Shown one piece after another: positions 19,397 through 45,760 of a stretch of 64,000 bases of DNA (position 1 is its first letter; each line of letters starts with the position of its first letter). The stretch lies in NCBI RefSeq assembly GCF_003018255.1, contig NZ_CP027440.1; one strand, written 5' to 3'. The stretch comes from Escherichia coli. GTDB taxonomy: Bacteria > Pseudomonadota > Gammaproteobacteria > Enterobacterales > Enterobacteriaceae. Below the pieces are notes generated by a model. That model was not told the origin of the DNA and did not search any database. It saw only the letters and a program-made list of their open reading frames with translations. The position numbers and the translations under genes are program-made.

Positions 19397-19455
19397 GGTA
19401 TCCGTTCTGCTGAAGTGTCATGGCGTTGATTTTACGGTGACTCTTCGACAGTGAA

Positions 19456-19486
19456 AAGAAAAAAGGCCGCAGAGCGGCCTTTTTAG
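19456..19486. terminator. Intrinsic terminator downstream of ihfA (symmetric A/T tracts, potentially bidirectional)
   Basis: ggccgc-aga-gcggcc hairpin (19465-19479) flanked by aaaaaaa (19458-19464) and ttttt (19480-19484). Confidence 0.7.
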
Positions 19487-19496
19487 TTAGATCAGA

Positions 19497-19796
19497 TTAC
19501 TCGTCTTTGGGCGAAGCGTTTTCGACCCGGCTTTTTAACTTCTGCCCGGGTCTGAAGGTCACCACGCGCCGTGCTGTAATGGGAATATCCTCGCCCGTTT
19601 TCGGGTTACGTCCCGGGCGTTGATTCTTATCACGCAGATCGAAGTTACCAAAACCAGAGAGTTTCACCTGTTCGCCGTTTTCCAGAGCGCGACGGATCTC
19701 TTCGAAAAACAGTTCAACCAGTTCTTTGGCATCCCGCTTGCTAAGCCCAAGCTTATCAAACAGATATTCTGACATTTCAGCTTTTGTAAGCGCCAT
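19497..19796 (-). CDS. ihfA: Integration host factor alpha subunit
   Basis: 99-aa [55 protein letters not shown]... recognised as IHF-alpha. Confidence 0.97.
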
Positions 19797-23395: not shown

Positions 23396-23420
23396 ACAAA
23401 AAAAGCCTCCACTGGGAGGC
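23396..23420 (-). terminator. pheST attenuator terminator
   Basis: gcctcc-actg-ggaggc hairpin (23405-23420); on the transcribed (minus) strand it is followed by a U-run (plus-strand A-run 23396-23404); lies between pheM and pheS. Confidence 0.75.
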
Positions 23421-23470
23421 TTTCAGGCGCTGTTTTCCGTTTCTCTTCTCACGCGCTAGCCTCCTGGAGT

Positions 23471-23515
23471 CAGGTGCTAAAGTAAAAAAAGAAGCGGAAA
23501 ATAGCAGCATTCATT
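23471..23515 (-). CDS. pheM: pheST operon leader peptide (Phe-rich, 14 aa)
   Basis: Reverse complement of 23471-23515 reads ATG AAT GCT GCT ATT TTC CGC TTC TTT TTT TAC TTT AGC ACC TGA = [14 protein letters not shown]; five Phe codons. Confidence 0.85.
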
Positions 23516-23599
23516 GCTTGCGTTACCTTTTGGTACTCTTCAAAAGACCTTTATTGAAAAGGCTACGGCGATAAAAGTCAATGTTTTGATGGCGTTGAA

Positions 23600-36188: not shown

Positions 36189-38450
36189 ATGTCGCAACAT
36201 AACGAAAAGAACCCACATCAGCACCAGTCACCACTACACGATTCCAGCGAAGCGAAACCGGGGATGGACTCACTGGCACCTGAAGACGGATCTCATCGTC
36301 CAGCGGCTGAACCAACACCGCCTGGTGCACAACCTACCGCCCCAGGGAGCCTGAAAGCCCCTGATACGCGTAACGAAAAACTTAATTCTCTGGAAGACGT
36401 ACGCAAAGGCAGTGAAAATTATGCGCTGACCACTAACCAGGGCGTGCGCATCGCCGATGATCAAAACTCACTGCGTGCCGGTAGCCGTGGTCCAACGCTG
36501 CTGGAAGATTTTATTCTGCGCGAGAAAATCACTCACTTTGACCATGAGCGCATCCCGGAACGTATTGTTCATGCACGCGGATCAGCCGCTCACGGTTATT
36601 TCCAGCCATATAAAAGCTTAAGCGATATCACCAAAGCGGATTTCCTCTCAGATCCGAACAAAATCACCCCAGTATTTGTACGTTTCTCTACCGTTCAGGG
36701 TGGTGCTGGCTCTGCCGATACCGTGCGTGATATCCGTGGCTTTGCCACCAAGTTCTATACTGAAGAGGGTATTTTTGACCTCGTTGGCAATAACACGCCA
36801 ATCTTCTTTATCCAGGATGCGCATAAATTCCCCGATTTTGTTCATGCGGTAAAACCAGAACCGCACTGGGCAATTCCACAAGGGCAAAGCGCCCACGATA
36901 CTTTCTGGGATTATGTTTCTCTGCAACCTGAAACTCTGCACAACGTGATGTGGGCGATGTCGGATCGCGGGATCCCGCGCAGTTACCGCACCATGGAAGG
37001 CTTCGGTATTCACACCTTCCGCCTGATTAATGCCGAAGGGAAGGCAACGTTCGTACGTTTCCACTGGAAACCACTGGCAGGTAAAGCCTCACTCGTTTGG
37101 GATGAAGCACAAAAACTAACCGGACGTGACCCGGACTTCCACCGCCGCGAGTTGTGGGAAGCCATCGAAGCAGGCGATTTTCCGGAATACGAACTGGGCT
37201 TCCAGTTGATTCCTGAGGAAGATGAATTTAAGTTCGACTTCGACCTTCTTGATCCAACTAAACTTATCCCGGAAGAACTGGTGCCCGTTCAGCGTGTCGG
37301 CAAAATGGTGCTCAATCGCAATCCGGATAACTTTTTTGCCGAAAACGAACAAGCAGCATTCCATCCAGGTCATATTGTTCCTGGTCTGGACTTCACCAAT
37401 GATCCCCTGTTGCAGGGACGTTTGTTCTCTTATACCGATACACAAATCAGTCGTCTTGGTGGGCCGAATTTCCATGAGATTCCGATTAACCGTCCGACCT
37501 GCCCTTACCATAATTTCCAGCGTGATGGCATGCATCGTATGGGGATCGACACTAACCCGGCGAATTACGAACCGAACTCGATCAACGATAACTGGCCGCG
37601 CGAAACACCGCCGGGGCCGAAACGCGGCGGTTTTGAATCATACCAGGAACGCGTGGAAGGCAATAAAGTTCGCGAGCGCAGCCCATCATTTGGCGAATAT
37701 TATTCTCATCCGCGCCTGTTCTGGTTAAGTCAGACGCCGTTCGAGCAGCGCCATATTGTTGATGGTTTTAGTTTTGAGTTAAGCAAAGTAGTACGCCCGT
37801 ATATTCGTGAGCGCGTTGTTGACCAGTTGGCGCATATCGATCTTAACCTTGCGCAGGCGGTAGCAAAAAATCTCGGTATTGAGCTGACTGACGATCAACT
37901 GAATATTACGCCGCCACCGGACGTCAACGGGCTGAAAAAAGATCCTGCGTTAAGTCTGTACGCCATTCCTGACGGTGATGTGAAAGGTCGCGTGGTAGCG
38001 ATTTTGCTTAATGATGAAGTGAGATCGGCAGACCTTCTGGCCATTCTCAAGGCGCTGAAGGCCAAAGGCGTTCATGCCAAACTGCTCTATTCCCGAATGG
38101 GTGAAGTGACTGCGGATGACGGTACGGTGTTGCCTATAGCCGCTACCTTTGCCGGTGCGCCTTCGCTGACGGTCGATGCGGTCATTGTCCCTTGCGGCAA
38201 TATCGCGGATATCGCTGACAACGGCGATGCCAACTACTATCTGATGGAAGCCTACAAACACCTTAAACCGATTGCGCTGGCAGGAGACGCGCGCAAGTTT
38301 AAAGCAACAATCAAGGTCGCTGACCAGGGTGAAGAAGGGATTGTGGAAGCTGACAGCGCCGACGGTAGTTTTATGGATGAACTGTTAACGCTGATGGCAG
38401 CACACCGCGTGTGGTCACGTATTCCTAAGATTGACAAAATTCCTGCCTGA
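36189..38450 (+). CDS. katE: Catalase HPII
   Basis: 753-aa ORF recognised as large-subunit monofunctional catalase. Confidence 0.97.
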
Positions 38451-38455
38451 TGGGA

Positions 38456-38475
38456 GGCGGCGCAGTTGCGCCGCC
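38456..38475 (+). terminator. Perfect hairpin immediately after the katE stop
   Basis: ggcggcgc-agtt-gcgccgcc, 8-bp GC stem; no strong U-run, so it may be a REP-like palindrome rather than a classic terminator. Confidence 0.4.
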
Positions 38476-38499
38476 TCAAATGATTTACATAGTGCGCTT

Positions 38500-38700
38500 T
38501 GTTTATGTCGGATGCGGCGTGAACGCCTTATCCGGCCTACAAAACTGTGCAAATTCAATATATTGCAGGAAAAACGTAGGCCTGATAAGCGAAGCGCATC
38601 AGGCAGTTTTGCGTTTGTCAGCAGTCTCAAGCGGCGCAGTTACGCCGCCTTTGTAGGAATTAATCGCCGGATGCAAGGTTCACGCCGCATCTGGCAAACA
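38500..38700. repeat. BIME / RIP element (REP - IHF-site - inverted REP, plus an additional REP-like palindrome)
   Basis: gtcggatgcggcgtgaacgccttatccggcctac (REP), then aaaactgtgcaaattcaatatattgcagg (IHF-site-like core), then gtaggcctgataagcgaagcgcatcaggc (inverted REP), plus cgccggatgcaaggttcacgccgcatctggc further on. Confidence 0.7.
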
Positions 38701-38707
38701 TCCTCAC

Positions 38708-39478
<771 letters not shown>

Positions 39479-45654: not shown

Positions 45655-45760
45655 GTTCACGCCGGATGCGGCGTGAACGCCTTACTCGACCTACAAAACT
45701 ATGCAAATTCAATACATTGCAGGAGTCGAATAGGCCTGACAGGCGTAGCACGTCAGACGG
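45655..45760. repeat. RIP / BIME element (second copy in the window)
   Basis: gccggatgcggcgtgaacgccttactcgacctac + aaaactatgcaaattcaatacattgcagg + aataggcctgacaggcgtagcacgtcagacgg; near-identical in its core to the element at about 38508-38612. Confidence 0.7.

Follow-up and report, generated by a model that had tools for sequence, protein, structure and literature searches.

BIME-1 elements are defined as a y and a z1 REP in inverse orientation around a long conserved linker, L, which often contains an IHF site, and they are found as single copies (PMC3333891). Their reported size is about 140 bp, and the presence or absence of the whole element among strains is recorded in a passage that cites Bachellier 1997 (both in PMC1187871). 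Binding of IHF is attributed to the BIME-1 linker, and strong binding of gyrase to BIME-2 and atypical BIMEs (PMC2817692; PMC3333891). REPs are described as leaky terminators and stabilisers that are enriched between convergent genes, and the same preprint of March 2026 still puts the spread of REPs and BIMEs down to "semi-random insertion" by an "unknown mechanism" (bioRxiv 10.64898/2026.03.23.713779). As to the enzymes, RAYT cleaves between C and T beside REP hairpins (PMC3333891), and transposition of the IS200/IS605 type makes no larger target duplication (PMC2817692).

A BIME-1 unit between katE and chbG

We analysed the spacer between katE and chbG in a stretch of 64,000 nucleotides of Escherichia coli DNA, here called the window, in whose coordinates all positions are given. 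Genes are named after the E. coli RefSeq annotation. The spacer is 257 bp long (38451-38707) and separates convergent genes, as the original prediction had stated and as the coordinates of the two reading frames confirm. Read from katE, it contains a GC hairpin (HP1), a Y REP, an A/T-rich linker, a Z1 REP in inverted orientation, a second hairpin (HP2) and a third, Y-like REP (Table 1). Folded as RNA in the katE sense, the whole spacer reaches a z-score of -6.8 against shuffled sequences. No repeat features are annotated over the equivalent of the spacer in the K-12 RefSeq record.

Table 1. Features of the katE-chbG region, in window coordinates (strand ".", no strand assigned)
Feature	Position	Strand	Basis or remark
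katE (catalase HPII), coding sequence	36189-38450	+	Stop codon TGA at 38448-38450; ORF list and RefSeq annotation
HP1, left copy of the duplicated target hairpin, AGGCGGCGCAGTTGCGCCGCCT	38455-38476	.	Repeat search, fold
BIME-1 (RIP/RIB) unit, 152 bp	38477-38628	+	Each boundary uncertain by 1 nt
Left flank of the unit, conserved; consensus TCAGATTGTTGACAAAGTGCGCTTTGTTCATG	38477-38505	+	Family alignments
Y-type REP with CCTAC(AAA) tail	38506-38543	+	Hairpin of -18.6 kcal/mol
L linker, Rfam ES036/CssrF match	38541-38583	+	IHF-consensus site inside
Z1-type REP, inverse orientation, GTAGGCCTGATAAGCGAAGCGCATCAGGCAG	38576-38606	-	Repeat search and alignment
Right flank of the unit, conserved; consensus GTTTTGCGTTTGTCATCAGTCTC	38607-38628	+	Family alignments
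HP2, right copy of the duplicated target hairpin, AAGCGGCGCAGTTACGCCGCCT	38629-38650	.	Followed by TTG
Third REP, Y-like, degenerate	38653-38696	-	GTAGG head at 38653-38657, 9-nt insert, palindrome at 38666-38696
Plus-strand RNA 3' end, K-12 coordinate 1816378	38700 (equivalent)	+	Term-seq, Adams et al. 2021, PMC7815308
chbG (chitooligosaccharide deacetylase), coding sequence	38708-39466	-	Convergent with katE; ORF list and RefSeq annotation

The block of Y REP, linker and Z1 REP is a canonical BIME-1, also called RIP or RIB. The Y REP departs from the Y consensus at one of 34 positions (38507-38540; no such match is expected in shuffled sequences), and the Z1 REP departs at a single position from the consensus of five copies, this one and four other BIME-1. 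For the Z1 REP, which lies on the minus strand, the CCTAC-proximal arms show 93% complementarity. Between the two REPs, the linker matches all 43 positions of the Rfam model RF02751 with 55.4 bits (E 2e-10; gathering score 37.6), and it is invariant or nearly so across BIME-1 copies, both in the five-copy alignment and in an alignment of 14 distinct loci. It holds the sole IHF-type site of the spacer, ATTCAATATATTG at 38553-38565, which agrees with the consensus WATCAANNNNTTR at 12 of 13 positions. When Rfam was queried at a permissive threshold, the only matches besides ES036 were sub-threshold ones to naRNA4, which is REP-derived. The third REP stands apart from this block; its palindrome is 77% complementary to the Y REP over 31 nt and, on the katE strand, folds into a hairpin of -18.2 kcal/mol.

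The unit extends beyond the REPs. Alignments with other genomic copies start at about 38471-38484 and stop at 38628-38635, thereby covering the whole stretch between the two hairpins. In the alignment of 14 distinct loci conservation drops sharply at both ends, and the boundaries read (T)CAGATTG... and ...CAGTCTC(A). The terminal segments of about 16 nt are imperfect inverted repeats, 13 of 16 positions being complementary between the consensus ends. The element is a single, non-tandem extragenic unit of a family that is multicopy in the genome: an E. coli genome contains, in the median, 38 or more places that match the segment, and 24 distinct loci came out of metagenomes scanned with the linker core.

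These results bear out most of the original prediction, which had proposed two opposite REPs around an A/T-rich, RIP-like core with an IHF-like site, followed by a further REP-like palindrome, and had staked the proposal on similarity to REP and RIP families in a database search; the core indeed passes the curated Rfam threshold. Its suggestion that such elements bind both IHF and gyrase holds in its first half for the BIME-1 family and needs correction in its second, strong gyrase binding being attributed to BIME-2 and atypical BIMEs and not to BIME-1 (PMC2817692; PMC3333891). On DNA, the linker would offer a consensus IHF site, and from this consensus together with the binding reported for the family, occupancy by IHF at katE-chbG may be expected. 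In composition, order, orientation, linker sequence, single-copy arrangement, size, location 3' of a gene and presence/absence polymorphism, the element at katE-chbG shows no difference from described BIME-1/RIP/RIB. Because the element is canonical and its locus is one of K-12, the finding as first worded was already known. The element itself is ordinary; the informative part is the duplicated terminator hairpin around it, which provides a testable clue to how the repeat spreads.

The window contains a second BIME-1 (45661-45750), composed of a Y REP, a linker (45695-45737, scoring 42.9 bits with Rfam ES036) and a degenerate Z1 REP. Its flanks are degenerate, with no obvious hairpin duplication.

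Hairpins duplicated at the borders of BIME-1

HP1 begins 3 nt past the katE stop codon. It folds as a perfect 10-bp stem (38454-38463 with 38468-38477) closed by a 4-nt loop, at -23.4 kcal/mol, and its arms at 38454-38464 and 38467-38477 are 100% complementary. A perfect GC hairpin directly behind katE had been predicted, with a stem of 8 bp; the hairpin stands, and that length was too low because HP1 folds as a 10-bp stem. The predicted near-copy farther down the spacer was also recovered: HP1 and HP2 are identical at 20 of 22 positions with starts 174 bp apart, and at 38630-38649 HP2 shows 2 mismatches in 20 to HP1, where 0.05 matches would be expected by chance in the window. The direct repeat of the flanks scores 16, against a maximum of 11 among 552 mismatched flank pairs. 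Together HP1 and HP2 represent the insertion target, directly duplicated over 22 bp, and lie outside the BIME-1 repeat family. On this point the original prediction, which listed the GC hairpins among the parts of one composite palindromic structure, needs correction.

Neither hairpin has the structure of an intrinsic terminator, a GC hairpin with an immediate T-run, HP1 being followed by CAAATG. A scan for intrinsic-terminator-like sites in 38300-38900 returned none, so HP1 and HP2 are not classical terminators in their present form.

The same arrangement is found at other BIME-1 loci. In two samplings, the best direct repeat shared by left and right flank reached a score of 11-26 at each of nine distinct loci of E. 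coli BIME-1, namely katE-chbG, pitA-uspB, a site downstream of tkt, sbp-pfkA and those of L106, L100, L093, L097 and L193; mismatched flank pairs, taken as the null, reached at most 11 (n=552) and 10 (n=210). At all nine loci the flanking repeats are GC hairpins, which differ in sequence from locus to locus, measure 16-30 bp and are spaced 168-175 bp from start to start, and a T-run follows most of the right-hand copies. Pairs of filled and empty alleles settle that the paired hairpins are a duplicated target. Downstream of tkt, the empty allele carries a single AAGGGCCGCGAAAGCGGCCCTT followed by TTTTT, and the filled allele, 174 bp longer, carries the hairpin, a 152-bp unit, the identical 22 bp again and then the T-run. 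At pitA-uspB the site is filled in 1940 genomes and empty in most others, and the two states again differ by 174 bp. Both empty alleles have exactly one copy of the hairpin. In the filled pitA-uspB allele (L124 / L211), the 4-nt target loop (TTTA) is missing from the left hairpin copy, which is why the insertion measures exactly 174 bp despite a target hairpin of 26 bp.

Flanking duplication is absent from roughly one in two of the sampled full-length BIME-1 loci, so that either the rule is frequent and not universal, or the footprints decay. We do not claim that the unit always points the same way with respect to the gene that is terminated, the arrangement being symmetric at bidirectional terminators such as sbp-pfkA.

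We tentatively propose, as a rule that may be both real and previously undescribed, although we lean somewhat towards doubt on the two together, that BIME-1 is a unit of 152-154 bp which integrates at the foot of GC hairpins and duplicates the whole hairpin (16-30 bp). Under this rule the targets would usually be intrinsic terminators, and insertion would often fall between stem and T-run. Border hairpin duplication is not mentioned in PMC3333891, PMC2817692 or the 2026 preprint, the descriptions compared here; the 1990s primary literature (Boccard & Prentki 1993, Bachellier et al. 1997) may hold a prior account of the rule.

Several known mobile systems resemble this behavior in part. Autonomous elements with their own enzymes, such as class C group II introns and IS186, are guided to their targets by GC hairpins or palindromes. 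The REP-seeking IS621 and IS1397 likewise choose targets with the guidance of a GC-rich hairpin or palindrome, and differ from BIME-1 in being autonomous with enzymes of their own. REPIN/RAYT (TnpA-REP) single-strand transposition shares with BIME-1 a mobile unit of two inverted REPs and hairpin-shaped targets and ends, but the IS200/IS605 type leaves no larger target duplication (PMC2817692), in contrast to the whole hairpin of 16-30 bp that is duplicated here. The unit also recalls MITEs in part: it is short and non-coding, its boundaries are sharp, its ends of about 16 bp are imperfect inverted repeats, direct repeats flank it, and alleles occur both filled and empty. A MITE mobilised by a DDE transposase would be expected to leave a target duplication of fixed length, whereas that of BIME-1 follows the size of the target hairpin (16-30 bp). 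No parent IS with ends matching BIME-1 was identified.

If the rule is true, the length of the target duplication would be set by the structure of the DNA and not by an enzyme, which the RAYT model of single-strand transposition, as it now stands, does not predict. The rule would also explain the placement of BIME-1 at the 3' ends of transcription units, and, with the first hairpin parted from its T-run, a terminator would have been turned into a read-through 3' untranslated region (UTR). From the filled and empty pairs and the hairpin duplications one obtains the target of BIME-1 spread, its footprint and the precise ends of the element, and with these in hand an insertion assay is easy to design.

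Alleles and history of the katE-chbG locus

The convergent arrangement of katE and chbG is widespread in Enterobacteriaceae. In Citrobacter and Salmonella the spacer measures 35-52 bp and contains one hairpin, aaaaaTGCGGCGCA-loop-TGCGCCGCAaact, whose 8+8 stem is identical to that of HP1 (GCGGCGCA/TGCGCCGC) and whose A-run gives a T-run on the chbG strand. A single hairpin with the HP1 stem in these outgroups indicates that the hairpin is ancestral and the BIME-1 derived.

Among 5426 complete E. coli genomes, 1930 (36%) carry the long allele. In another 3247 (60%), a spacer of 45-46 bp with an unrelated hairpin follows different final katE codons, and the remaining genomes show other states, including an IS621 insertion. 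The long structure is therefore neither fixed at katE-chbG nor indispensable, given the 3247 genomes with an unrelated spacer. The 46-bp allele might be taken for the empty state of the long one; we rejected this, since its hairpin, aaggtcacgtcccctggggagtgacctt, and the last katE codons differ; the polarity at katE-chbG rests for this reason on the outgroups and on the analogy with other loci. A short-type spacer is also present in E. whittamii and two other Escherichia lineages.

Two cryptic-clade Escherichia genomes (L006 and L009) have a third type of spacer, an allele of 139 bp with the order hairpin, Z1 REP, IHF-like linker, Y REP. Its hairpin, GTGGCGCAactGCGCCAC, is a compensatory variant of HP1, and the allele has neither the conserved unit flanks nor a second hairpin copy. 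The long allele could be thought of as a simple inversion of this one; we rejected this reading on account of the missing unit flanks, and also because the REPs of L006 and L009 lie on the opposite side of the CTTT that follows the hairpin. In E. albertii NBRC 107761 (L011, 3757-3900), a perfect GGCGGCGCAGTTGCGCCGCC hairpin adjoins chbG and is followed by the BIME-1 right flank, the Z1 REP and a linker that is cut off, and then by unrelated DNA; the third REP is absent from this sequence, and katE does not occur within 1 kb. The diversity of Escherichia alleles indicates that the locus was remodelled several times and that the long allele is either old or exchanged between lineages. With the 139-bp cryptic-clade allele and the E. 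albertii state, evolution at katE-chbG is more tangled than one insertion.

The spacer is identical (100%) to that of strain JNE23-011, and the interval 38400-38760 aligns with K-12 at 98.6% identity and free of gaps. Over the larger interval 37850-39300 (1451 bp) identity to K-12 is 93.4%, the ends of katE and chbG lowering it relative to the 98.6% around the spacer. Strains with the short spacer are 95-96% identical to the window in the katE and chbG flanks. The pattern of identity around the spacer suggests a recombination mosaic.

As the best explanation of both history and function, we consider it highly probable that the spacer is a scar of repeat colonisation of a terminator and not a purpose-built structure. 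The starting state would have been a single GC hairpin between katE and chbG, as in present Citrobacter and Salmonella. A BIME-1 of 152 bp, made up of left flank, Y REP, linker with IHF site, inverted Z1 REP and right flank, would then have inserted at the foot of this hairpin, leaving a 22-bp copy on either side, now HP1 and HP2; an additional degenerate Y REP lies beside chbG. A possible insertion step is a cut of both strands at the 3' foot of the hairpin, followed by fill-in, which would yield a duplication of hairpin length; the data are consistent with such a step.

Other insertions and repeats have been seen at the locus. In E. coli EcWJ (L005), an IS621 of 1279 bp, an IS110-family element with a bridge-RNA recombinase that is reported to target REPs, lies inside the katE-chbG BIME-1 at the head of the Z1 REP, equivalent to about 38570-38580 of the window, and the L linker to its left is a sequence variant different from the K-12 linker. 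The katE-chbG spacer has been colonised independently in other genera, where it carries inverted Enterobacter-type REP pairs or boxC-like repeats (ccctctccc...gggagaggg) (Enterobacter and Lelliottia: L054, L059, L061, L067, L068, L071, L074, L076; further spacers: L055, L057, L060, L075, L077).

The katE transcript and alternative readings of the spacer

Expression of katE is RpoS-dependent. In Term-seq data of K-12, coordinate 1816378 is the sole plus-strand 3' end in the spacer, detected in the LB OD 2.0 sample (PMC7815308, supplementary file 1), and no RNA 3' end was mapped at HP1, at HP2 or elsewhere inside the spacer before it. We carried the coordinate to the window by the gap-free K-12 alignment, which places it a few nucleotides beyond the stem of the third REP. 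Since this only end comes after the third REP, katE transcripts would extend across both hairpins and the BIME-1 between them and stop at the last REP. REP hairpins that work as leaky terminators and/or barriers to 3' exonucleases would be expected to give such a pattern. The sampling point, LB at OD 2.0, fits stationary-phase, RpoS-dependent expression of katE.

The block would thus form a 250-nt katE 3' UTR in which transcription passes HP1, now lacking an adjacent T-run, the BIME-1 and HP2, until the last REP hairpin would act as a leaky stop and/or as a 3' exonuclease barrier. In the predicted fold, a helix of about 30 bp joins the Y REP to the third REP, and this pairing would bury the RNA 3' end. 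Stabilisation of katE or chb mRNA by the element is plausible. In 2015, Liang, Rudd and Deutscher reportedly described ribosome stalling at stop-proximal REPs; a part of HP1, 3 nt past the katE stop, in such stalling is offered here as an idea only. K-12 and many other E. coli would carry a structured katE 3' UTR of 250 nt, and most others one of 46 nt. This contrast of alleles is a natural experiment on how the expression of a stress catalase, and of the chb operon convergent with it, is tuned by REP and BIME content.

Other readings of the spacer have to be weighed against a scar of colonisation. The structure could be a device specific to this locus, a composite bidirectional terminator or a topological barrier that insulates the RpoS-dependent katE from the chb operon. 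Convergent genes, a very stable RNA structure (z-score -6.8) and the IHF consensus agree with such a role, as does a reported correlation between REPs in convergent spacers and higher expression of the two genes (bioRxiv 10.64898/2026.03.23.713779). We nevertheless hold it to be unlikely: the 152-bp unit recurs at dozens of loci unrelated to this one; a spacer of only 35-52 bp suffices in about 60% of E. coli and in most relatives; the terminator scan was negative, and none of the mapped RNA 3' ends falls at the hairpins. Less likely still is an origin of HP1 and HP2 by local duplication or gene conversion unrelated to BIME-1, or their membership in the repeat family. Palindromes are prone to slippage, and HP1 can also pair with HP2 as an inverted repeat; yet the hairpin is a different one at each locus and is duplicated exactly at the unit boundaries, at a spacing of 168-175 bp, the empty alleles hold exactly one copy, and the HP hairpin is orthologous to the single hairpin of the outgroups.

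The Rfam match above the gathering score raises the question of an independent sRNA gene of the ES036/CssrF family in the spacer, and CssrF was seen by northern blot in Shigella at dacB/yhbZ (PMC3071730). Such a gene has very little probability here, because the 43-nt model coincides with the BIME-1 linker and recurs at every copy, including the one at 45695-45737 of the window, and because no promoter-like site was found by the scan of 38300-38900 and no internal 3' end in K-12 Term-seq. The "sRNA" family ES036/CssrF of Rfam is the BIME-1 linker, and CssrF was named from a band at another BIME-1-type locus. Elsewhere in the window, Rfam gave two unrelated matches at gathering level, both on the minus strand: the sRNA STnc540 at 19397-19555 and the phenylalanine leader of the pheST region at 23396-23520.
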